Source: Gemmatimonadota bacterium (lineage in GTDB: Bacteria > Gemmatimonadota > Gemmatimonadetes > Gemmatimonadales > GWC2-71-9). Taken from it: 40,273 bases of DNA. Every line of letters starts with the position of its first letter. Positions within the stretch are counted from its first letter, which is position 1. Location of the stretch: positions 1 through 40,273 of the forward strand of contig JBDHDE010000024.1 of the NCBI GenBank assembly GCA_039591655.1. The letters are read 5' to 3'. Of this stretch, positions 7,753-19,307 are shown in pieces. The notes under the pieces are model-generated. The model made no database searches. It saw only the letters and a list, made by a program, of their open reading frames with translations, and was not told the origin of the DNA. Both the position numbers and the translations under genes were made by a program.

Positions 7753-8630
7753 GGCGATGTCTCCCTGCTCGCGAGTAGGTAACGATCCCGCCCAAATAGG
7801 TCCTGCTCGACCCGCACGCTGTGCCAGCCGGCGCTCCGGGCCAGGCTTTCCGCCTCCTGGGCCCTGCTGCAATCTATCTCCACAACGAGCAGGCCGTCCG
7901 CGCGGAGGTGGGGTGCTGCCTGCTCGAGCAGCCGTCGGGTGTGCTCCAGCCCGCCTTCGCCGCTCACCAGTGCGTCCCTGGGCTCGAACCGGCGGACCCC
8001 AATATCCAGACCCTCGAACTCCTCGGCTGTGACGTACGGCGGGTTGGCCACGATCACCTCGAACGCCTCCCCGGCAACGGCCTCCAGTAGGTCTCCCTCC
8101 CGGAACTCCACCGGCACGGGCGGCGCCACGCGCCGAAGGTTCTCCCGGGCCAGGGCCAGCACCTCGGTAGAGGCGTCCGCGGCCACCACCCGGCGGAACC
8201 GGCCCTCCACGGCGAGGCTGAGCGCGATGCAGCCGCTCCCGGTACCCACGTCGAGGGCATCGCCCCAGGCGCCGGCTCCCCGCCCCCGGGCCCTCCGGCC
8301 CCAGGCCAGCACCCGCTCCACCAGACCCTCGGTCTCGGGCCGGGGAATGAGCACGCGGGAGTCGATCTGGAGCTCCAGAGTGCGGAACCCTCCAACCCCG
8401 GTGGCGTAGGCCGCCGGCTCGCCCTCGGCCCGCCGCTCCACCGCATCCAGGAACCGCGCCCTGCGTTCCCGGGGGGCCTCGACCTCCCGGGCGAGCCACA
8501 CGTCACCCACGGTCGCTCCCGCCAGGCGGGCCCAGAGCCGCGCGGCCTCCCGCCGGGGGTGCTCGAGCCCCACCGCCGCCAGACGACCGGCGCCCTCCTC
8601 CAGAGCCTGGGCTACCGTGGGGTGTTCCAC
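7749..8630 (-). CDS. prmC: Release factor glutamine methyltransferase
   Basis: GEP.AY..G, VLIPRPETE, DVGTGSG, NPPY; follows prfA. Confidence 0.96.
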   Translation of the reverse strand: MEHPTVAQALEEGAGRLAAVGLEHPRREAARLWARLAGATVGDVWLAREVEAPRERRARFLDAVERRAEGEPAAYATGVGGFRTLELQIDSRVLIPRPETEGLVERVLAWGRRARGRGAGAWGDALDVGTGSGCIALSLAVEGRFRRVVAADASTEVLALARENLRRVAPPVPVEFREGDLLEAVAGEAFEVIVANPPYVTAEEFEGLDIGVRRFEPRDALVSGEGGLEHTRRLLEQAAPHLRADGLLVVEIDCSRAQEAESLARSAGWHSVRVEQDLFGRDRYLLASRETSP

Positions 8631-8634
8631 CCGA

Positions 8635-9693
8635 TCAGGTCGCGGCCCGCTCTCCGCGGTGTGCGAGGGCCAGCGCCTCGACCACCTCGTCCAGTTCCCC
8701 TTCCAGGATCTCGTCCAGGCGGTGCACCGTCAGGCTTATGCGATGGTCGGTTACGCGGTTCTGCGGGAAGTTGTAGGTGCGGATCTTGGCCGACCGGTCG
8801 CCCGTTCCCACCATGGCCCGCCGCTCCCGGCTACGCCCGGCCTCCTGCTCGGCGAGCATCCGGTCCAGCAGCCGGGCCCGCAGCACCTCCAGGGCCCTGA
8901 CCTTGTTCTGCAGTTGCGACTTCTGGTCCTGACACTGCACCACGAGCCCGGTGGGCAGATGGGTCACGCGCACGGCGCTATCGGTGGTGTTGACGCTCTG
9001 GCCGCCGGGCCCGGAGGAGCGGAACACGTCGATCTTGAGCTCCTTCTCCTCCAGCCGGACGTCCACTTCCTCCGCCTCGGGAAGCACGGCGACGGTGGCC
9101 GCCGAGGTGTGGATCCGCCCCTGGGCCTCGGTCACCGGAACGCGTTGCACCCGATGCACGCCCGACTCATAGCGCAGCCGGCCATAGGCATGGTCACCCC
9201 GGACGTGGAAGATCGCTTCCTTGACCCCCCCGACGTTGCCCTCGGAGAGGGATACCATCTCCACCGTCCAGCCCTGGCGCTCCGCGTAGCGGTTGTACAT
9301 CCGCAACAGGTCCGCCGCGAACAGCGCGGCCTCGTCGCCGCCCGTGCCTGCGCGGACCTCGACGATGGTGTCCCGATCGTCCATGGGATCCGGCGGCACC
9401 AGGAGGTCCTGCAGCTCCACCTCGAGCGCCTCGACCTCGGGCGCGAGCTTGTCGAGATCCGCCTGCGCCAGCTCCGCCAGGGCAGGATCGTCATCCCGGG
9501 CCAGCTCCTCTGCCTGGCCCAGGTCACCCACCAGCTTGTCATATTGGGCTGCGACCCTGCGAATGCGCTCGAGCCGGGCGTGCTCCCGACCCAGGGACTT
9601 CAGCTTGGAGGGGTCCTTCGCGGTGGCCGGATCGGCGAGCTCGCGTTCGACCTCAGCCGCGCGGGTAAGCGCGGCCTCGAGCCGCGCTTTCAT
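8635..9693 (-). CDS. prfA: Peptide chain release factor 1
   Basis: GGDEA, ESGVHRVQRVPVTE (PxT), GGQ, RTYNFPQNRVTDHR. Confidence 0.98.
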   Translation of the reverse strand: MKARLEAALTRAAEVERELADPATAKDPSKLKSLGREHARLERIRRVAAQYDKLVGDLGQAEELARDDDPALAELAQADLDKLAPEVEALEVELQDLLVPPDPMDDRDTIVEVRAGTGGDEAALFAADLLRMYNRYAERQGWTVEMVSLSEGNVGGVKEAIFHVRGDHAYGRLRYESGVHRVQRVPVTEAQGRIHTSAATVAVLPEAEEVDVRLEEKELKIDVFRSSGPGGQSVNTTDSAVRVTHLPTGLVVQCQDQKSQLQNKVRALEVLRARLLDRMLAEQEAGRSRERRAMVGTGDRSAKIRTYNFPQNRVTDHRISLTVHRLDEILEGELDEVVEALALAHRGERAAT

Positions 9694-9699
9694 GGCAGG

Positions 9700-9918
9700 C
9701 TACTCCGCCTCCGCCTTGGCGCCACCGGCATAGCGCTGCCGGAAGCGCTCCACGCGGCCAGCCGTGTCCACGAGCCTCTGCTTGCCGGTGAAGAACGGAT
9801 GGCAGCGCGCGCAGATCTCTACGTGGATCGAGGGCAGGGTGGAGCGCGTCTCGAACGTGTTCCCGCAGGCGCACTGCACCACCGCGCGCTGATACGTGGG
9901 ATGGATATCCGCTTTCAC
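9700..9918 (-). CDS. rpmE: 50S ribosomal protein L31, zinc-binding (C+) type
   Basis: [35 protein letters not shown] upstream of GTG 9918. Confidence 0.96.
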
Positions 9919-9969
9919 CTCATACACTCCCTGAGAATCAACCGTCTACATCTGGTCCGAAGAGGCGGA

Positions 9970-9999
9970 AATATAACGGCGGCATGGACTTGGGGGCAA
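9970..9999 (-). promoter_or_regulatory. Sigma70-type promoter for the rpmE operon
   Basis: Minus strand TTGCCC-N18-TATATT. Confidence 0.55.
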
Positions 10000-10019
10000 G
10001 GCGCCGGGCGCCATTTCAT

Positions 10020-10048
10020 TTGACAGCGACGCGGCCGACACATAAGCT
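10020..10048 (+). promoter_or_regulatory. Sigma70-type promoter for the crp-family gene
   Basis: TTGACA-N17-TAAGCT, back-to-back with the rpmE promoter. Confidence 0.75.
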
Positions 10049-10058
10049 AGGCCTCACT

Positions 10059-10757
10059 ATGCCCGGCGCGTCCCCCACCGGCCCACGCACCTCGGCAATG
10101 GAGCGGCTGCGGCAGGTTCCCCTGTTCGCGCACCTCTCCGACGAGGACATCGCCGGCTTCTCTACGGCCGCCCGCGAGCGGATGTACCCCAAGAACAGCG
10201 TCATCCTGTTCGAGGACGACCCCGGCGACGCGCTCTACGTGGTGCTGAAGGGGGAGGTGAAGGTCGTCCTGGTGGGCGAGGACGGGCGGGAGGTCATCCT
10301 CTCCATCCTGCGGGCCGGCGATTTCTTCGGTGAGATGGCGCTGATCGACGACCAGCCGCGCTCGGCCCACGTCATCGCCACCGAGGATGCCAACCTCCTG
10401 GTCCTGCGCCGCGAACAGTTCCGCCAGTGCTTGGCGGACACACCCCACGTCGCTCTGGGGCTGCTCCAGGCGCTCTCACGCCGGCTGCGCCGGGCGGACG
10501 ACAAGATCGGCGGGCTGGTGCTGCTGGACGTGAACGGGCGGGTGGCTCGCGTGCTCCTCGAGCTGGCGGACGAGCACGACGGCGAGCACGTCCCCCGCAA
10601 GATCACCCACCACATGCTCGCCCAGATGATCGGGTCCAGCCGAGAGACCGTCTCCCGCACCATCCGCGACCTGACGGATCAGGGCCTCATCGAGGTCTCT
10701 CGCAAGGACATCATCATTCGTAACCGCTCGCAGCTGGAACAGCTGGCGGGCCTCTAG
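10059..10757 (+). CDS. Crp/Fnr family transcriptional regulator (cNMP-binding)
   Basis: Phosphate-binding cassette FFGEMALIDDQPRSA; HTH recognition helix SRETVSR; alternative start ATG 10098. Confidence 0.93.
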   Translation: MPGASPTGPRTSAMERLRQVPLFAHLSDEDIAGFSTAARERMYPKNSVILFEDDPGDALYVVLKGEVKVVLVGEDGREVILSILRAGDFFGEMALIDDQPRSAHVIATEDANLLVLRREQFRQCLADTPHVALGLLQALSRRLRRADDKIGGLVLLDVNGRVARVLLELADEHDGEHVPRKITHHMLAQMIGSSRETVSRTIRDLTDQGLIEVSRKDIIIRNRSQLEQLAGL

Positions 10758-10771
10758 TGACCCATGTCACC
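10756..10771. promoter_or_regulatory. Putative Crp-family operator
   Basis: AGTGA-CCCATG-TCACC contains the GTGA-N6-TCAC core (8/10 to TGTGA-N6-TCACA). Confidence 0.6.
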
Positions 10772-10792
10772 GAGCCGGCGTGACTGCATGCC

Positions 10793-10822
10793 TTGTTTGA
10801 GTCTGAGCGCCGCCTGTAGCTT
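10793..10822 (+). promoter_or_regulatory. Putative sigma70-type promoter for the MBL-to-HD-GYP operon
   Basis: TTGTTT-N18-TAGCTT downstream of the Crp box. Confidence 0.45.
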
Positions 10823-10849
10823 GCCGCCTATGGCGGCACAGTCGGGCCA

Positions 10850-11725
10850 ATGGCTTACAGCGTAACGATCTGGGGCGCGCGCGGGTCGATCCCCACGCCC
10901 GGGGCGGAGACCACGCGCTACGGTGGCAATACGCCCTGCGTGGCGCTGGAGCAGGCCGCCGCGGACGGGGATCGGCTCGTGATCCTCGATGCCGGAACCG
11001 GTATCCGCCTCCTCGGCCAGCAGCTGGTGGACCAGGGCAACGGCCCACTACAGGTGGACCTGATCCTGAGCCACACGCACTGGGATCACATCCAGGGCAT
11101 CCCGTTCTTCGCGCCGTTCTTCGGTGAGGGGAACGAGGTCCGCATCTGGGGGTCCAAGCAGGCGGAGGTCGGTCTGGACGTCATACTCCACCAGCTGATG
11201 CACCCGGTCGTGTTCCCGGTGCCGCTCGATCGCCTGGCCGCCGAGCTCAAGGTGGAGCACGTGGAGCCGGGCAAATTCGAGGTCGATGGCTTCCGGGTCG
11301 CGGCGGTGCGGCTGCGCCACCCCGGCAACACGCTGGGGTACCGGCTCACGCCCACGAGCGGTGGAGCCACCATGGCGTACGTGACCGACAACGAGCTGGG
11401 ATCCGGCGGCGACTACGAGGTCGGACCCCGGTGGCGCTCCGAGCTCGTGGCGTTTCTGGAGGGGGTGGACGTGCTGATCCACGACGCGATGTATGCGCCC
11501 GGCGACCTGGGACAGCATCGCGGCTGGGGCCACTCCTCCACCTCCGAGGCCGTGCAGCTCGCGGCCGAGGCGCAGGTGGAACAGCTGGTGCTGTTCCACC
11601 ACCGCCCGGAGCACGACGATGCGAAGATGGACATCCTGGTCGAGGCCGCTCGGGCCGAGGCCGACGATACGGGGCGGGCAGTGGAAGTGATTGCTGCAAC
11701 GGAGGGGATGCGACTGATCCTCTGA
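10850..11725 (+). CDS. MBL-fold metallo-hydrolase (putative phosphodiesterase)
   Basis: WGARGSIP, YGGNT.CV, DAGTG, HTHWDH, TDNE, HDAMY, GWGHS, LFHH.P. Confidence 0.88.
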   Translation: MAYSVTIWGARGSIPTPGAETTRYGGNTPCVALEQAAADGDRLVILDAGTGIRLLGQQLVDQGNGPLQVDLILSHTHWDHIQGIPFFAPFFGEGNEVRIWGSKQAEVGLDVILHQLMHPVVFPVPLDRLAAELKVEHVEPGKFEVDGFRVAAVRLRHPGNTLGYRLTPTSGGATMAYVTDNELGSGGDYEVGPRWRSELVAFLEGVDVLIHDAMYAPGDLGQHRGWGHSSTSEAVQLAAEAQVEQLVLFHHRPEHDDAKMDILVEAARAEADDTGRAVEVIAATEGMRLIL

Positions 11726-11741
11726 GCTGGAGGAAGAGCCT

Positions 11742-12443
11742 ATGCGCTGGCGTTCGATACCTGCCCTGTCTCTGGCCGCGATACTCGTCGCGCCCACCGC
11801 CCTGCCCGCACAAGACACGCGGCCCGGAGTGGCGGTCATGCCGTTCGAGGACGGCGGCTCGTACGGTCAGGACCAGGAGGACTTCGAGGCCCTCACCGTG
11901 GGGCTGCAACAGATGCTGCTCACCGAGCTGGCCGCCAACGACCAGCTTCGAGTCGTGGAGCGCGGCCGGATTCGGGACCTCCTGGCCGAGATGGAGCTGG
12001 GCGCCACGGGGAACGTCGACCCGAGCACCGCCGCCGAGATCGGCAAGCTGGTCGGCGCCCGGTACATGGTGTTCGGCAGCTTCATCGATTGGTACGGCGA
12101 TTTCCGACTGAACGCCCGAGTGGTGAGCGTCGAGACCAGCGAGATCGTAAAGGTGGAGCGCGCTCGCGACGAGCGCGAGAACCTGTTCTCGATGCTCGTG
12201 GAGATGGCCGACAACCTCACCAGGGACCTCGATCTGCCGGAGTTGTCTCGTCAGGCCTTCGAGGACCGGCGGGAGCGCTCCGAGCAGATCCCGCAAGAGG
12301 CGCTGCGCCTCTACAGCAAGGCACTCCTCTATGCGGACCGCGGTGACACCGATCGCGCCGTTGAGCTGTTCAATCAGGTGACACGCGAGTTCCCGGAGTA
12401 CACCGAAGCGCAGGAGGCCTTGAGGCAGCTCCAGCAGGGGTAG
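11742..12443 (+). CDS. Exported CsgG/HfaB-like protein with C-terminal TPR
   Basis: Signal peptide ALPA-Q; VAVMPF, VVER..I..LL.E..L, TAAEIGKLVGARYMVFGS, VETSEI; TPR-like helix pair at the C-terminus. Confidence 0.75.
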   Translation: MRWRSIPALSLAAILVAPTALPAQDTRPGVAVMPFEDGGSYGQDQEDFEALTVGLQQMLLTELAANDQLRVVERGRIRDLLAEMELGATGNVDPSTAAEIGKLVGARYMVFGSFIDWYGDFRLNARVVSVETSEIVKVERARDERENLFSMLVEMADNLTRDLDLPELSRQAFEDRRERSEQIPQEALRLYSKALLYADRGDTDRAVELFNQVTREFPEYTEAQEALRQLQQG

Positions 12444-12444
12444 C

Positions 12445-13224
12445 GTGGTAGGCGTTGCAGCACTCGGACAGGGAGTAGCGCGCTCGATCGCCTGGGTAGG
12501 GGCGCTGGCGCGCTTCTTCTTTCACACGTTGGAAGCGGCGCGCTGGCTCCCCAGAGCCGGGCGCCGCGTCGCCTTCCGCGTGCTGCTCAGGCAGATTTGG
12601 TTCACCGCACTTCAGGCCCTCCCCCTGATCGTGGTTCTCTCCTCCATCCTGAGCTTCCTGGTGATCTCCCAGGCCGTGCGCGAGCTCGGACGGCTGGGGG
12701 CCACCGAGCTCATCGGGCGCCTCATGGTGGTCGCCATCGTGCGGGAGTTGGGTCCGCTCATAACGGCACTTGCCATCGCCGGTCGGTCGGGCACCGCCAT
12801 CGCCGCGGAACTCGCCACGAACAAGGTGATGGGCGAGGTAAACGCGCTGGAGGGCATGGGTATCGATCCCCTGCACTATCACGTCCTGCCCAGGTTCGGG
12901 GCGGCGCTCCTATCGGTGTTCGGCCTCATCGTGGTCTTCGACGTAGTGGCGATCCTCTCCGGCCTCTTGGCGGCCAACGCCAACGGCATGACCAGCGCGC
13001 ACTACTTCAACATCGTCCTGGCGTCCCTCACCCTGCGGGACGTCGGACTGACGGTCGCCAAGGCGCTGGTGTTCGGTGTTATCGTCGGGATGATCCCGAG
13101 CTTCCACGGGCTAGCCGTGCGTGGCTCGCCCACGGAGATCCCGGTGGCGTCCAGTCAGGCAGCGGTGGGAAGCATCCTCGCAATCTTTCTCTGTTCCGGA
13201 CTGTTCGTGGTATTGCTCGCATGA
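12445..13224 (+). CDS. MlaE-family ABC permease
   Basis: VRELGPLITALAIAGRSGTAIAAEL, E..ALE.MGIDP..Y.V.PR. Confidence 0.9.
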   Translation: MVGVAALGQGVARSIAWVGALARFFFHTLEAARWLPRAGRRVAFRVLLRQIWFTALQALPLIVVLSSILSFLVISQAVRELGRLGATELIGRLMVVAIVRELGPLITALAIAGRSGTAIAAELATNKVMGEVNALEGMGIDPLHYHVLPRFGAALLSVFGLIVVFDVVAILSGLLAANANGMTSAHYFNIVLASLTLRDVGLTVAKALVFGVIVGMIPSFHGLAVRGSPTEIPVASSQAAVGSILAIFLCSGLFVVLLA

Positions 13225-13892
13225 CGACGCTGCCACTGCGCTTCGAGGCGCTCACGCTTCCCGGCTACCCGGCGCCCATCTCCTTCGATGTGCCGGCACA
13301 CCACGCGGTGGCGGTGATCGGATCCGAGGCCAGTGGGGTGGACGCACTCCCCGCCTACGCCCTCGCCCTCAAGCGACCGCGGGCCGGGCGCGTGTTGGTA
13401 TTCGACGAGGACGTGGAGCAACTGCCGCGGCGCGCCGTGCTCGCCTTCCGCCGCCGAGTGGGCTACCTTCCTGCCGGCGACGGCCTGCTCCACAACCTCT
13501 CGCTGAAGGAGAACGTGGCCCTGCCGCTGCGGTACGGCAGCGACCTCGGCGAGCGCGAGATCACCGGTCGGATCCGCATCATGCTCACCCTGGTGGGCAT
13601 TTCCGATGTCGCGGACCTCCGACCCGCAGACGCCACCGACGAACAGCGCCGCCGGGCAGCGCTAGCTCGGGCGTTGGCGTTCGATCCGGACCTGCTGGTT
13701 CTCGCCGATCCCTTCGACGGGCTGACCACACGCGCAGCCACGGAACTGCTGGAGCTTGCGCGCGGCGGCGAGAGCGGCGCAGGTTCGAGACGTACCTTGT
13801 TCATGACGGGCCAGTCGGTTCCCATGCGGCTTGAGCCGCGGATCGAGGTCCGCTACCGTCTCGCCAAGGGCGAGTTGCGCCGCGAGAGTTGA
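13221..13892 (+). CDS. MlaF-like ABC ATP-binding-fold protein with degenerate catalytic motifs
   Basis: MlaF scaffold (P.AGRV.V, RRRVGYL, LSLKENVALPL, RAALARALAFDP) but altered Walker A/B, Q-loop, signature and H-loop; ATGA overlap with mlaE. Confidence 0.85.
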   Translation: MTTLPLRFEALTLPGYPAPISFDVPAHHAVAVIGSEASGVDALPAYALALKRPRAGRVLVFDEDVEQLPRRAVLAFRRRVGYLPAGDGLLHNLSLKENVALPLRYGSDLGEREITGRIRIMLTLVGISDVADLRPADATDEQRRRAALARALAFDPDLLVLADPFDGLTTRAATELLELARGGESGAGSRRTLFMTGQSVPMRLEPRIEVRYRLAKGELRRES

Positions 13893-13904
13893 CCGGGAGG
13901 GGTT

Positions 13905-14801
13905 ACGGGACGCACGGATTTTCTGGTCGGGCTGTTCATCCTCGTGAGCGTGGGGATCATCGTCGGCACGGCCGTGCTGACGAGCGACCTACTGGAAGGA
14001 CGCTACGAGCTGCACATGCGCGCTGCGGAAGCCGAGGGCCTCACCCAGGACACGCGCGTGGAGCTCCAGGGGCTGGCCATCGGCCGGGTCACGCAGGTGA
14101 ACCCGCACCTCGACACCGCCACCAACGCCCTGAGCTTCATTGCCACCTTGTCGATTCGGGAACGATTCCCGGACGGCACCCGGCTGCGGCTCCCCGCGGG
14201 GACGCGGGCGTTCATCGCGCCGCCGCCCACGGTGGTGGGGGCAGCCGTGGTCGACCTGGCCATGCCCCAGGCATCGCCGGCCGGGGCGTTTCTCCAGCCG
14301 GGCGACACGCTCGAGTCGGAGCGCAGAGCCGGCGTGATGCAGTCGCTATCCGAAATCGCCGCCGGGATGCACGAGGACGCCTTGGCCATGGTGACCGAGA
14401 CGCGGCAGCTCTTGACCCATACGACCCGCGCGGTGGACCAGACCAACACGCTCCTGGCCAGCGCACGCCCCCGGGTGGAGGATGTGCTGGAACGCCTGAG
14501 CGGCAGCCTCGAGCGAACCGATCGAATCCTGGCCGAGGTGGAGCCCCGGGTCGGACCGGTGACCGACAGCATCATGGCGACGCTGGCGCACACGCACGAG
14601 GTACTGGCGGGGCTGGACAGCCTGGCCAGCACCGCGCACGATGTCGCCACGGAGAACCGTGAGGCCGTGGCCGAGATGGTAGCCAAGCTCAGCCGCTCCG
14701 CCGAGATTCTGGAGTACTTCGCCGAGCAGATCAGCCGGCGTCCGCTCCGGATGCTATGGGGCGTGACGCCGCCGCCCGACACCGCCGACGAGCAGCAATG
14801 A
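13905..14801 (+). CDS. MlaD/MCE family protein with helical C-terminal extension
   Basis: RTDFLVGLFIL TM, AEGL...TRVELQGLAIGRV MCE motif, C-terminal I.RRPLRMLWG. Start uncertain: ACG 13905 behind GGAGG, first canonical start GTG 13944. Confidence 0.85.
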   Translation, partial: TGRTDFLVGLFILVSVGIIVGTAVLTSDLLEGRYELHMRAAEAEGLTQDTRVELQGLAIGRVTQVNPHLDTATNALSFIATLSIRERFPDGTRLRLPAGTRAFIAPPPTVVGAAVVDLAMPQASPAGAFLQPGDTLESERRAGVMQSLSEIAAGMHEDALAMVTETRQLLTHTTRAVDQTNTLLASARPRVEDVLERLSGSLERTDRILAEVEPRVGPVTDSIMATLAHTHEVLAGLDSLASTAHDVATENREAVAEMVAKLSRSAEILEYFAEQISRRPLRMLWGVTPPPDTADEQQ

Positions 14802-16738
14802 AGTACCAGCTACTGCACTCCACCACGTTCCAGACGGACACCATCGCCCAAGCGCTGGCGACGGAGGGGGTCGCCGTATCCACGCTCGACTCCGCCAGGG
14901 AACTGGCCGTCACCGGGGTCCCGACCGCCCTGATCCTCGACCCCCGCAGCCGCAGCGGATACACCACCGAGCAGCTGAGCACCTTCGTGACAGGCGGCGG
15001 CGCCGTGGTCGCCATCGGCGCCCCCGGGGAGCAGGATGTGCCCGACTCGCTGTCGAGCAGTCTGGTCTCCGTCTTCGTGCCCCACGATCACGGGCCGCGC
15101 CAGCTGTTGGTTGCTCTCCGCACGGCGTACCGCGAAGCGGCTGCTCGGGGCGAGACGCGGCGGGCACGTCAGGAGACGGCGTTCCGGACCAGGGAGATCA
15201 AGGAGCTCACGCGTATCGGGATGGCTCTCGCCACCGAGCGGGACCTGAATACCCTGTTGGAGCTGATCCTGGTGCAGGCGCTCCAGATCACGCAGTCCGA
15301 CGCCGGCAGCCTCTACCTGGTGGAGAAGCCCGAGGGCGAGCCCCGCCGCCTGCGCTTCAAGCTCACGCAGAACGCCTCACGGCCGGACATTCCATTCGTG
15401 GGAATCCCACCTGCGCCAGTCGATACCGCGAGCATCTCCGGGTACGCGGCCGCGACCGGGGAGCCGCTGGTCATCGACGACGTGTACTTCCTCCCGCCGG
15501 ACGTTGACTACACGTTCAATCGCTCCTTCGACGAGAGGTACGGCTACCGCTCGAAATCGATGCTCACCCTCCCTATGAAGGACCATCGGGAGGAAGTGAT
15601 CGGCGTGCTCCAGCTCATCAACCGCAAGCGAGACGCGAATGCAAAGCTCGAGGCGCCGGAGGACTTCGACGCCCAGGTGATCCCGTATACGCACCGGCTC
15701 GTGGAACTCGTCTCCGCCATGGCGGGCCAGGCTGCCGTGGCCATCGAGAACAGCATACTCTACGCGGACATCGAGCGGTTGTTCGAAGGCTTCGTGCGGG
15801 CCTCCGTGTTTGCCATCGAGCAGCGAGACCCTACGACGTTCGGTCACTCGGGCCGAGTGGCGTCCATGACCGTAGCGCTGGCCAAGACGGTGGACCGCTG
15901 CGACGACGGTACGTACGGCGCCATAGGCTTCTCGCGGCAGGAGATCAGGGAGATCCGCTACGCGGGGCTGCTACACGACTTCGGCAAGGTCGGCGTACGC
16001 GAGCAGGTTCTGGTCAAGGCGAAGAAGCTCTACCCGCCCGACCTGGCGCTCATCAGGCAGCGGTTCGCCTTCATCCGCCGCTCGGCCGAGAGCGATTTCC
16101 ACCGCGCACGAGCCGAGTTCCTCGAGAAGAACGGCCGCGCGGGCTACGATGAGTACGTCGGCGCGTTGCAGGCGGAGCACGAGCGACAGCTCGAGGAGCT
16201 GGACCAGTTCATGCACCTGGTGCTCGACTCCAACGAGCCCACGCTGCTGCCGGAAGGGAGCTTCGAGAGTCTGATCCGCTACGCCGACCGGTTCTACCTG
16301 GACCTCGAGGGGCGCCAGCTGCCGTACCTCACGGACGACGAGGTGCGCTTCCTGAGCATCCGCAAGGGCAGCCTGGATGAGGCCGAGCGCCTGGAGATCG
16401 AGAGCCACGTCACGCACACCTACAAGTTCCTGCTGCAGATCCCGTGGACGAAGGAGCTCCAGTCGGTGCCGACCATCGCCTACGGCCACCACGAGAAGAT
16501 GGACGGTACGGGCTACCCCCGCCAAGTCCGGGGGAAGCACATCCCGATCCAGACCCGCATGATGACCATCGCCGACATCTTCGACGCGCTGACTGCGGCG
16601 GATCGTCCCTACAAGCGCGCCGTCCCGGCACCCCGCGCCCTCGACATCCTCTCGGACGAGACGGGGGCCGGACAGTTGGACAAGGAGTTGTTCAGGCTGT
16701 TCGTCGAAGGGAAGGTCTACGAGCGGTCGTCCGACTGA
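14798..16738 (+). CDS. GAF + HD-GYP metal-dependent phosphodiesterase with degenerate REC-like N-terminus
   Basis: GAF (DAGSLYL, SML..PM, GVLQLIN), RDPTT.GHS.RVA, LLHDFGK, HHEKMDGTGYP, ADIFDALT..DRPYK; ATGA overlap with mlaD. Confidence 0.92.
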   Translation: MKYQLLHSTTFQTDTIAQALATEGVAVSTLDSARELAVTGVPTALILDPRSRSGYTTEQLSTFVTGGGAVVAIGAPGEQDVPDSLSSSLVSVFVPHDHGPRQLLVALRTAYREAAARGETRRARQETAFRTREIKELTRIGMALATERDLNTLLELILVQALQITQSDAGSLYLVEKPEGEPRRLRFKLTQNASRPDIPFVGIPPAPVDTASISGYAAATGEPLVIDDVYFLPPDVDYTFNRSFDERYGYRSKSMLTLPMKDHREEVIGVLQLINRKRDANAKLEAPEDFDAQVIPYTHRLVELVSAMAGQAAVAIENSILYADIERLFEGFVRASVFAIEQRDPTTFGHSGRVASMTVALAKTVDRCDDGTYGAIGFSRQEIREIRYAGLLHDFGKVGVREQVLVKAKKLYPPDLALIRQRFAFIRRSAESDFHRARAEFLEKNGRAGYDEYVGALQAEHERQLEELDQFMHLVLDSNEPTLLPEGSFESLIRYADRFYLDLEGRQLPYLTDDEVRFLSIRKGSLDEAERLEIESHVTHTYKFLLQIPWTKELQSVPTIAYGHHEKMDGTGYPRQVRGKHIPIQTRMMTIADIFDALTAADRPYKRAVPAPRALDILSDETGAGQLDKELFRLFVEGKVYERSSD

Positions 16739-18300
16739 GACGTGCGACGGTCAGGCGGGAGCGCCGCGCTTCGCCGCCCGCGCCACCACCCGAAGCCGCC
16801 AAGACTGGCCGTCAGCACCAGCACGAGCGTTCCGACCCAGTCTCCCCACCGCGTGTAGAGGGTCACGGCGTCAGTGGTAACGAGCTCGTGTGCAACGAAG
16901 GTCCTCGTGTCGAGGGCCGTCCGCCGGTGCCGGCGGCCGAGGGGATCCACGAACTCGGAGATCCCGCTGTTCGCCGCCCGGGCAATTCCAACTCGGTTCT
17001 CGATGGCCCGCATGACCAGGTGCGCCGCGTGCTGATACACCGCGCTCGTGCCGCCGAACCAGGCGTCGTTGGTGATATTCACCAGGAAGTCCGCTCCCTC
17101 CCGGCGGTAGCGGCGGGACACGTCCTCGAACGCGGATTCGTAACAGATCAAAACGCCGAAGCGCCCGGCCGGAACCGCATACACGGGTCCCGGCTCACCG
17201 AAGCCGTAGCCCTCGAAGAACCGCACCTTGAACCAGCGCGGGTTGAGAAACGGGACGCGCTCGGTGATGGGCACCAGGTACTGCTTGTGGTACACTGGTT
17301 GGCCAGCGTCACGGCCCAGTGAATCGAAGAGGAACGCCGCGTTGTAGTACTCGTACGAGCCGCCCTCTCCCGGAACGTAGTGGAACCCACCCACGAGCTG
17401 CGGAGTCGCGGTGGCGCGGGACAGCTCGGCGATGCGCCGGCGCCACTGCGGATGGCGGTGGAAGTACCCCGGGACCGCGGCCTCGGGCCACACCACCAGC
17501 CCGGGCCTCGACTCGTACAGCGCGCGCGCTGAGAGGTTGAGCAAACCCTCCACGATCGAGTCCTGTAGCGCCGGCTCCCACTTCTCCGACCAACCGACGT
17601 TGGGCTGCAACACGGCGATGCGGCCCACCGGTCGCACGGCGAGCCCACGCTCGCGCGCTACGCCGTAACCCCAGGCCAGCACGAGGCCGACCACGACGCC
17701 GCCGGCGAGCAGCGCCCCTCGTTTGCGATCGCTCCGCCTGAGCCAGGCCATGGCGAGCGCCGCGTTGGCCAGGGCGAGGAGGTAGGTGATCCCCCGAGCC
17801 CCGACGATGTCGGCTAGCTGCACCACGGTGGGGTAGCCGGTGAGCGAGGTGCCGAGCCCCAGCCAGGGGAACCCCACCTGGGGCAGATGCCCGATCGCCC
17901 ACTCCACCGTCGTCCACACAATGGGGAACACCACGACCGGGCCCACTCGCGTGCGGCGCACCACCCATCCCGTCACCGCGAACGCTGCCGCACAGGACAC
18001 CCCGAGAACGACGATCGTCACCAGGTAGCCAAGGGCCGAGAGGCGGGAGAACCGCCACAGGGCGACCGTGATCCAGTACAGCACCAGCCCGTTCCCGAGG
18101 AGGCCGAACCAGAAGCCCTGGACCAGATGCCGCCTCACCGGCCGCGGATCCTCGGCCCCTGCCATGATCAGCCAGACCGCTGGAACGAGACACAGGAACG
18201 ACGGGAGGAAAAGGTGGAACGGCGGGTAGGCGGCACACAGCAATACGGCACCGCCGACGATCAACCGCCAGTCGTCGCGCGGCAGCGCGAGCGCCCTCAC
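16717..18300 (-). CDS. lnt: Apolipoprotein N-acyltransferase
   Basis: GFPW..LG, QPN, WPE, YNAA, K..LVP..E, ICYES, NITNDAWF, RAIEN, ANSGIS. Confidence 0.95.
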   Translation of the reverse strand: MRALALPRDDWRLIVGGAVLLCAAYPPFHLFLPSFLCLVPAVWLIMAGAEDPRPVRRHLVQGFWFGLLGNGLVLYWITVALWRFSRLSALGYLVTIVVLGVSCAAAFAVTGWVVRRTRVGPVVVFPIVWTTVEWAIGHLPQVGFPWLGLGTSLTGYPTVVQLADIVGARGITYLLALANAALAMAWLRRSDRKRGALLAGGVVVGLVLAWGYGVARERGLAVRPVGRIAVLQPNVGWSEKWEPALQDSIVEGLLNLSARALYESRPGLVVWPEAAVPGYFHRHPQWRRRIAELSRATATPQLVGGFHYVPGEGGSYEYYNAAFLFDSLGRDAGQPVYHKQYLVPITERVPFLNPRWFKVRFFEGYGFGEPGPVYAVPAGRFGVLICYESAFEDVSRRYRREGADFLVNITNDAWFGGTSAVYQHAAHLVMRAIENRVGIARAANSGISEFVDPLGRRHRRTALDTRTFVAHELVTTDAVTLYTRWGDWVGTLVLVLTASLGGFGWWRGRRSAALPPDRRTSQSDDRS

Positions 18301-19307
18301 AGCGCGACTTCGCAGCCTTCGGCGGCCGAGCGGTAGATGGCCTCCATGACGCGGTGGAGCAGAATCTGGTCCTCCAGCTCTGGGGCGGGCACCGCCCCGC
18401 GCACCGCGTCGAGGAAGTACGCCCACTCCGCCCGATAGGAAAGGCTGAACGCGGACTCACGCACGCCTTCCCGCGGGGGCGTCACGTTGACCGGGGCACC
18501 GTGCATCTCCTTGAAGACTGCCAGCGGCGGCATGCTGGCAGAACCCCCGTCGCCCAGCACCTCGAGGGCGACCTTTTCCTCGCGGCCAACGTACCGCCAG
18601 GACACATCCACGAATATGGAGTGATGGCGATCGCAGCGGATCAAGGCGCAGGCCGAGTCCTCGACGTCGCCGTTCCCTTCCCGGGCGCTGAACACCGCCG
18701 TGACGCGCTTGGCGCCGGGACACCCCGAGAGCCACAACCCCAGATCGACGAGGGGCAAACCCAGATCGAACATCGCCCCACCGCCCGACTGAGCGCGTCG
18801 CTCACGCCAGCCGGCCACGGGTCCCACCGGTCGGTGGATGTGCCAGCGGGCCCGCAGGGCCCGCAGGGCCCCCAGCTCTCCGCCGGTGAGAAAGCGCCGC
18901 ACCGCTTCCACGTCGCTGCGGAAGCGATGGTTCATGCCCACCATGACGATCCTGTCAGCCCGATCGCGCGCCGCGACGACCCGCTCCACCCCGGCAGTGT
19001 TGAGGGCCAGGGGACGCTCGCACAGCACGTGCATCCCGGCCGACAGAGCCGTTTCGACGTGCACCTCGTGGAGATGGTTCGGCGTGCACACCACGACCGC
19101 ATCGGGCTCGGCGTAGCGCAACAGGTCCTCGATGTCGTCGAAGACATTGGGTATCCCGAACCGGTCCGCGATGGCCTGGGCCTTGGGGAGGTCGGTGTCG
19201 CAAACACCGACCACCTCGGCGTCCTCGGTCCTGTCGAGCGTGACGAGGTGGGCGACCTGCGCGATCGCCCCGGCACCGATCACCCCGATCCGCACGGCGT
19301 CGGTCAT
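18297..19307 (-). CDS. Gfo/Idh/MocA family oxidoreductase
   Basis: IGVIGAGAIA, CTPNHLH, HVLCERP, GGG..FDLG. Confidence 0.9.
   Translation of the reverse strand: MTDAVRIGVIGAGAIAQVAHLVTLDRTEDAEVVGVCDTDLPKAQAIADRFGIPNVFDDIEDLLRYAEPDAVVVCTPNHLHEVHVETALSAGMHVLCERPLALNTAGVERVVAARDRADRIVMVGMNHRFRSDVEAVRRFLTGGELGALRALRARWHIHRPVGPVAGWRERRAQSGGGAMFDLGLPLVDLGLWLSGCPGAKRVTAVFSAREGNGDVEDSACALIRCDRHHSIFVDVSWRYVGREEKVALEVLGDGGSASMPPLAVFKEMHGAPVNVTPPREGVRESAFSLSYRAEWAYFLDAVRGAVPAPELEDQILLHRVMEAIYRSAAEGCEVAL

Follow-up and report, generated by a model that had tools for sequence, protein, structure and literature searches.

The ABC transporters are defined by their use of ATP and, to our knowledge, the degenerate members described so far keep one working site. 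The locus described here raises the question of what an ABC transporter can be when the only NBD gene of its operon has lost its catalytic motifs, and of whether such a gene is maintained or is simply decaying. The gene, called here pseudoF (for pseudo-MlaF), lies in the window, that is, the whole 40,273-nt stretch of Gemmatimonadota DNA that was analysed, in an operon of seven genes with the following features:

10059..10757, plus strand: Crp/Fnr cyclic-nucleotide-binding regulator, crp (PF00027, PF13545)
10756..10771, no strand assigned: palindrome GTGA-N6-TCAC resembling a Crp box, some 94 nt ahead of the MBL gene and adjoining the crp stop (consensus score)
10850..11725, plus strand: MBL-fold metallo-hydrolase (PF12706)
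11742..12443, plus strand: exported CsgG/TolB-N-like and TPR protein (PF03783; structural matches of its model: LpoB, TolB-N, periplasmic domain of CadC)
12445..13224, plus strand: mlaE permease of a distinct clade (PF02405, E 1e-54; SH-aLRT 99)
13221..13892, plus strand: pseudo-MlaF (pseudoF), ABC NBD fold without catalytic motifs, 223 aa (PF00005, AlphaFold, Foldseek)
13320..13343, plus strand: degenerate Walker A GSEASGVD (residues 34–41; Lys to Val, Ser/Thr to Asp; alignment, n=120)
13461..13541, plus strand: Q-loop YLPA (residues 82–85; Gln to Ala85) and start of the helical subdomain (alignment, n=120)
13632..13646, plus strand: degenerate signature ATDEQ (residues 138–142; canonical LSGGM; alignment, n=120)
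13692..13727, plus strand: degenerate Walker B and D-loop LLVLADPFDGLT (alignment, n=120)
13761..13793, plus strand: insertion RGGExxxG[SA]RR (residues 181–191), conserved in Gemmatimonadales (7/11 positions at least 90% identical)
13803..13814, plus strand: degenerate switch MTGQ (residues 195–198; His to Gln198; alignment, n=120)
13905..14801, plus strand: long mlaD/MCE gene, about 300 aa (PF02470, E 3e-8; start probably ACG at 13905)
14798..16738, plus strand: GAF and HD-GYP phosphodiesterase-type protein (PF01590, PF13487; ATGA overlap with mlaD)

The original prediction held that five catalytic motifs of this protein are replaced (GSEASGVD, YLPA, ATDEQ, LLVLADP and MTGQ), that the segments NVALPL, ALARAL and P..GL are retained, and that the reading frame is intact and coupled to mlaE. 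This description was borne out throughout: alignment to the MlaF of A. baumannii and to the canonical MlaF of the same genome, by which the motifs were placed, puts each replaced segment at the motif position; the retained segments are present, the last as PFDGL; and the start of the uninterrupted 223-aa frame overlaps the mlaE stop (ATGA), while the mlaD frame begins 3 nt after pseudoF. The Walker B segment reads LLVLADP (residues 158–164) and is devoid of the Asp-Glu pair, and the Asp of the D-loop is also replaced, by Thr169. The general definitions of the ABC motifs were checked here against 20 canonical references, and the Gln of the Q-loop is present in all of them (20/20).

The protein is recognized by the Pfam model PF00005 (ABC_tran; E 7e-11, 43.3 bits, cut-off 25), its best NCBIfam match is MlaF (NF008809; 69.9 bits, below the cut-off of 441), and its best sequence match in the PDB is the MlaF of A. 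baumannii (7D06), with 28% identity. The structure prediction that had been suggested as a check gave a confident ABC fold (AlphaFold pLDDT 93.9, with an input alignment of 113 sequences that included canonical MlaF), for which Foldseek reports TM scores of 0.82–0.87 to LolD, MetN and MlaF, the value for the MlaF structures 6xbd and 7d06 being 0.87; the ESM Atlas leads to ABC_tran-type clusters only. The chain ends directly after the last strand, with no C-terminal extension. Among the 33 NBD domains of the genome, 31 keep three or four of the four scored motifs and only pseudoF keeps none, so that its motif loss is not a matter of chance; the two other mlaE operons of the genome hold fully canonical MlaF.

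The loss of these residues is common to a whole clade. A protein search returned 902 matches among 8000 scored candidates, of which the best 120 were aligned: the query and 119 homologues with 57–78% identity to it, the named relatives belonging to the Gemmatimonadota/Gemmatimonadales. In this alignment, Lys40 and Ser/Thr41 of Walker A are kept in 0/120 proteins and Gln85 of the Q-loop in 1/120; of the signature, Ser139 is kept in 20/120, Gly140 in 2/120 and Gly141 in 0/120; of Walker B and the D-loop, Asp162 in 21/120, Glu163 in 1/120 and Asp169 in 0/120; and His198 of the switch in 6/120. None of the ten canonical residues is kept in 78 of the 120 proteins, and no protein keeps more than three. 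The replacement residues are themselves conserved (Glu36 in 100/120, Ser38 in 112/120, Gly39 in 118/120, Glu141 in 118/120 and Gln198 in 104/120). In a sample of the phylum, a single pseudoF match each was found in 42 of 301 Gemmatimonadota genomes (E ≤1e-30), none of the 42 with an internal stop; the 301-genome tallies include three unpublished genomes (G181, G156 and G056).

Purifying selection on pseudoF is evident from a GY94 codon model of 40 sequences, in which omega is 0.072 (0.035 for MlaE), and from eight chosen close pairs, with dN/dS of 0.07–0.27 (0.06–0.31 for MlaD). These measures were used in place of the all-pairs NG86 estimate, which was set aside as saturated (median 0.41 for pseudoF, from 323 of 780 pairs) and which gives 0.27 for release factor 1 (RF1) and 0.83 for MlaD as controls. 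It could be argued that pseudoF is a pseudogene in the making or an assembly artefact, since the trio of mlaE, pseudoF and mlaD is patchy and often lost, one genome (G141) is frameshifted in mlaE and pseudoF, and the saturated median is 0.41; however, that same measure gives 0.27 even for the release factor, the 42 genome matches are free of internal stops, and the decay reading is refuted by the omega of 0.072 together with a motif loss common to all 120 proteins, which makes it extremely improbable. The expectation of a maintained pseudo-ATPase, with comparison of orthologues as its check, thus stands, on a clade-wide loss in which the canonical motif set occurs in 0/120 proteins, a dN/dS below 1 and a confident ABC fold. 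These observations support the view that pseudoF is a conserved pseudo-ATPase, in which ATPase activity would be absent, and not a product of decay. The frameshifts of G141 (L066:7227–8661) may reflect decay or sequencing error.

An mlaE gene and an MCE gene flank the NBD gene, as in the Mla/MCE core, this order is repeated in the loci of relatives, and no canonical NBD was found in the operon among the loci read. A close mlaE orthologue is present in 43 of the 301 genomes, namely the 42 with pseudoF and G263, whose contig stops inside mlaE; the wider MlaE clade, as detected by profile, is present in 49/301. This strict co-occurrence extends to co-loss: in one complete genome (L309:5170–5872) a deletion fuses the end of csgG to the middle of mlaD, and mlaE and pseudoF are both gone. 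The core unit is mlaE-pseudoF-long mlaD, and pseudoF travels with MlaE and MlaD and not with the HD-GYP protein, because the trio and the HD-GYP gene occur without each other. The mlaD remnant of L309 is without its membrane anchor.

As for mlaD itself, there is no ATG, GTG or TTG before its membrane anchor (13896–13907), but there is an ACG with a GGAGG 4 nt upstream of it; this ACG is kept in the close relatives L036, L038 and L002, and a GTG or ATG is found nearby in L039, L040 and L042. Its start is probably the non-canonical ACG. At the other end, alignment of the C-termini reveals a conserved RRPxRxxTGV-like tail.

The best-conserved stretches of pseudoF are the Q-loop/helical groove, residues 81–107, where 20 of 27 positions are at least 90% identical (mean 0.90, n=120), and the helix after the signature, where 12 of 14 positions are (mean conservation 0.95, n=120). 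In ABC proteins the groove between the Q-loop and the helical subdomain receives the coupling helix of the permease and, by analogy, residues 81–107 of pseudoF are likely to be the docking groove for the coupling helix of MlaE. In the Mla system, binding of MlaF is mediated by this helix, according to the accessible part of PMC7790496. The RGGExxxG[SA]RR insertion is a possible candidate for a partner surface, and the last strands of pseudoF are rich in Arg.

Motif loss is not confined to the Gemmatimonadales. A search of 50%-identity clusters brought up numerous MlaF-like proteins in which part of the motifs is lost. An alignment spanning the degenerate NBDs at large (A2) was too poorly conserved in all of its stretches to serve in a locus scan and, when turned into a profile, failed to tell pseudoF apart from ordinary ABC ATPases. 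Its place was taken by three subgroup alignments, which together gave 187 loci: the best 80 of 574 in one set, and the complete sets of 76 and 31 in the others. A caveat to all counts from these locus sets is that they were seeded from degenerate proteins, although the search patterns contained no catalytic residue. The loci belong mainly to Verrucomicrobiota, Bdellovibrionota, Geobacteraceae and Nitrospirota, with single records from Spirochaetota, Myxococcota and Planctomycetota, and the cultured carriers include Bdellovibrio bacteriovorus and, among the Geobacteraceae, Geomonas and Geomesophilobacter. The gene order is the same, with mlaE detected in 172/187 loci, mlaD in 176/187 and no second NBD in the unit. 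A full-length NBD adjoins such an mlaE in 213 cases, and in none of these do Gln, SGG, Glu and His occur together. The loss is graded: the Lys of Walker A is kept in 68/74 Verrucomicrobiota, 47/61 Bdellovibrionota, 0/8 Thermodesulfobacteriota and 0/43 Gemmatimonadota, and the Asp of Walker B in 70/74 Verrucomicrobiota and 61/61 Bdellovibrionota.

In an MlaE tree of 78 rows (a quick search only, on a hand-chosen subset of loci), all 52 pseudoF-linked MlaE proteins and that of L263 form one branch (SH-aLRT 99), outside of which lie 23 canonical-linked and two NBD-less MlaE proteins. The coupling helix carries Glu131 in 52/52 of the pseudoF-linked proteins, versus Gln in 19/23 of the canonical ones, and the Gly-rich loop GAxGVG carries Pro233 in 41/52, versus Gly in 22/23; by sequence, then, the pseudoF-linked MlaE would be altered where an NBD would act. 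The NBDs themselves do not form one clade in a FastTree (three changes), with subgroups that mirror those of MlaE, and the NBD of L263 is nearly canonical, with the signature alone changed, though its MlaE belongs to the pseudoF clade. A plausible reading, which we consider as apt to prove right as wrong, is that an old multi-phylum Mla/MCE lineage lost its ATP cycle stepwise and kept the dead motor as a frame, the machine now working as a passive lipid conduit or envelope sensor; the residues for hydrolysis and for closing the dimer would have been lost at a first step (Verrucomicrobiota, Bdellovibrionota), and ATP binding itself at a second (Geobacteraceae, Gemmatimonadota). The existence of graded degenerate versions in several phyla makes it likely that this type of transporter works without an ATP cycle of its own.

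Several features of these loci were recorded along the way. Of the 176 loci that lie outside the Gemmatimonadota set, 35 encode a TPR protein right after mlaD (e.g., L234:6608–7570), and in most cases its N-terminus is lipobox-like; its carriers are Geobacteraceae, Nitrospirota, some Verrucomicrobiota and Spirochaetota, and it is a candidate outer-membrane anchor. Of the Bdellovibrio-type loci, 56 have a DUF218 gene ahead of mlaE (e.g., L192:3450–4034) and 34 have a LolC/E-type gene behind mlaD. Eight loci (L103, L106, L123, L126, L131, L139, L149 and L158) are of the Verrucomicrobiota type; the titles of their records (Klebsiella, Bifidobacterium, Akkermansia) look unreliable, and no taxa are claimed for them.

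The role that we favour for pseudoF, with a probability that we judge to be evenly poised, is that of a structural component in an MCE conduit that works independently of ATP. The protein would dock on the coupling helices of MlaE and hold together a complex of MlaE, pseudoF and long MlaD, possibly with a 2:2:6 stoichiometry (MlaE2-pseudoF2-MlaD6), through which lipids or similar hydrophobic cargo would move passively, without an ATP cycle. Precedents for this proposal come from three reports: the complex with MlaF K47A still transfers lipid spontaneously (in the available part of bioRxiv 10.1101/2021.05.25.445566), lipid flow through PqiABC is reported as passive (bioRxiv 10.64898/2026.09.15.751761), and MlaE mutants with reduced MlaFB binding are described (in the excerpt of PMC7790496). 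Some observations sit uneasily with such a conduit. All 11 genomes checked also carry canonical mlaEF operons elsewhere; the Gemmatimonadales retain the order of seven genes, two of them of phosphodiesterase type, in all loci that do not run off a contig (37 of 40); the conserved surface insertion RGGExxxG[SA]RR is left unexplained; the NBD tree has no single pseudoF clade, and the nearly canonical NBD of L263 belongs with the MlaE clade; and neither the MlaC nor the PqiC family (PF03886) was found in this 95%-complete genome.

The surroundings of the trio in the Gemmatimonadales bear on a different role. The order crp-MBL-csgG-mlaE-pseudoF-mlaD-GAF/HD-GYP is found in 37 of 40 loci, the other three running off contig ends, with overlaps or gaps of at most 16 nt from mbl through hd-gyp. 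A Crp-box-like site, scored against the general Crp consensus with a threshold of 8/10, precedes the MBL gene in 42/53 loci, versus 1/53 upstream of crp, and it is likely that the trio lies inside a Crp-controlled cyclic-nucleotide operon. The MBL protein has a weak match, far below the cut-off, to a cyclic-nucleotide phosphodiesterase model. The csgG-like gene is present in 157 of 301 genomes, versus 42–43 for the trio, and 20 csgG-positive, pseudoF-negative loci were picked by hand for comparison: ten are crp-mbl-csgG-HD-GYP without a trace of the trio, five are crp-mbl-csgG without HD-GYP, four are csgG alone and one is the L309 deletion. Conversely, five other Gemmatimonadota loci have mlaE-pseudoF-mlaD among unrelated genes, with no HD-GYP gene of the operon's type. 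The Crp-box-like palindrome is also kept in most loci without the trio. The only class III nucleotide cyclase match of the genome lies on another contig (G000:C9:22554–23075) and could supply the ligand of Crp, and a group II intron reverse transcriptase/maturase lies near the trio in genome G166 (L076:12132–13586). An Rfam scan of positions 8500–18500 returned no match, a sigma-70 scan gave no promoter-like site on the plus strand, and no extra gene is shared after HD-GYP, the extras of relatives being mostly on the opposite strand and the three annotated ones unrelated.

The CsgG-annotated protein (11742–12443) was considered as a candidate for capping the MCE needle in the manner of PqiC. 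It combines a TolB-N domain with TPR, its best whole-chain likeness is the periplasmic sensor domain of CadC (TM 0.55), no cysteine lipobox was seen in it, and PqiC/PA3214 is absent among the matches listed for its model; the idea is weakened by a fold that matches LpoB, TolB-N and CadC and by the persistence of the gene without the trio.

Three other roles for pseudoF were weighed. The complex could be a sensor (a “transceptor”), in which MlaD and MlaE would read the lipid state of the envelope and pseudoF would relay its conformation to a cytoplasmic partner, the candidates in the Gemmatimonadales being the GAF/HD-GYP protein, the MBL hydrolase or Crp. The constant gene order with its tight spacing, the Crp-box-like sites, the conserved insertion and the Arg-rich last strands all agree with this idea, which is nevertheless rather unlikely given that half of the 20 loci picked have crp-mbl-csgG-HD-GYP but not the trio, that the csgG-like gene is far more widespread, and that the trio occurs without an HD-GYP gene of this type in the five other Gemmatimonadota loci and in other phyla. 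The original prediction had spoken of a “scaffold or signal output”: the scaffold is the likelier half, while the case for a signal passed to the HD-GYP protein loses strength through this separable distribution, and the placement of the trio in the Crp/cyclic-nucleotide operon is taken to mean that the genes are co-regulated, not that their products signal by contact.

It is known that MceG powers the mycobacterial Mce permeases in trans and, in the same manner, a canonical MlaF from another operon could power the MlaE of the trio, with pseudoF as a placeholder, inhibitor or heterodimer partner. A motor in trans is supported by the canonical mlaEF operons present in every one of the 11 genomes checked, and mlaE-mlaD operons without an NBD do exist in two Geobacteraceae loci (L270 and L274); it is quite unlikely, however, as each canonical MlaF adjoins its own MlaE, the coupling helix of the pseudoF-linked MlaE clade carries residues not shared with canonical MlaE and, by the rules of ABC proteins, the absence of the Walker residues and of the signature from pseudoF would leave neither heterodimer site complete. 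Finally, the remodelled pocket might gate the conduit allosterically, on binding either another ligand or ATP that it does not hydrolyse. The conserved replacements (E36, S38, G39, E141 and Q198) and the retention of the Walker A Lys and the Walker B Asp in most Verrucomicrobiota and Bdellovibrionota speak for such a pocket, but the Lys is gone in Gemmatimonadota and Thermodesulfobacteriota, phosphates would presumably be repelled by the acidic side chains of the P-loop and signature, and helix capping and packing could account for the conservation, all of which renders it very unlikely. The two NBD-less loci of Geobacteraceae have no NBD gene within the 3.6 kb read, and their MlaE is of the canonical type in the tree.

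Compared with known systems, the trio shares with MlaFEDB (E. coli 6XBD, A. baumannii 7D06) an MlaE permease, an MCE-domain MlaD and the NBD fold (TM 0.87), and differs from it in an NBD without the scored catalytic motifs, in an operon without an MlaB gene and in the length of MlaD (about 300 aa versus 183 aa). Unlike the MlaF of E. coli, pseudoF is devoid of the C-terminal handshake extension described in the accessible text of PMC7367683. The minimal MlaEFD of Veillonella parvula has the same order (mlaE-F-D), overlapping stop and start codons and a long MCE protein, which has been proposed to act as a bridge, whereas its MlaF closely resembles model MlaF (PMC10665443, in the part available). 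PA3211–PA3214 of P. aeruginosa and PqiABC of E. coli have a long MCE needle with a C-terminal peptide, which the long MlaD with its conserved tail may resemble; PA3212 is called an ATPase there (PMC13631591, in excerpt). PqiABC has no ABC subunit, whereas the trio has pseudoF, and its lipid flow is reported as passive (bioRxiv 10.64898/2026.09.15.751761, in the portion accessible); other lineages of the MlaE clade carry the TPR lipoprotein after mlaD rather than PqiC.

A related case of motif loss is provided by the ABC transporters with one degenerate site, such as TM287/288 and CydDC. In these transporters, as in the ABCB11 type (PMC7544095), non-canonical motifs are kept by selection, but they keep one working, ATP-binding site, whereas the only NBD of the trio operon is without the residues for binding and hydrolysis. 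If the favoured reading is true, pseudoF would belong to an ABC transporter without any working ATP site, and a Mla-type complex with a dead sole motor would be a natural control for two questions: can MCE systems pass phospholipid passively, and what does ATP add.

No published Mla/MCE system with a fully degenerate NBD was found in the full-text literature, as judged from titles and the starts of abstracts, with subscription papers mostly missing. The lineage is hidden in surveys because databases label pseudoF proteins as ordinary MlaF ATPases. One such survey identified MlaF by synteny, and the available part of its text makes no mention of degenerate copies (PMC10665443); supplementary tables of this kind might list pseudoF genes as plain MlaF. 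Since the same MlaE clade occurs in the cultured Bdellovibrio bacteriovorus and Geomonas, the proposal can be tested without culturing Gemmatimonadales.
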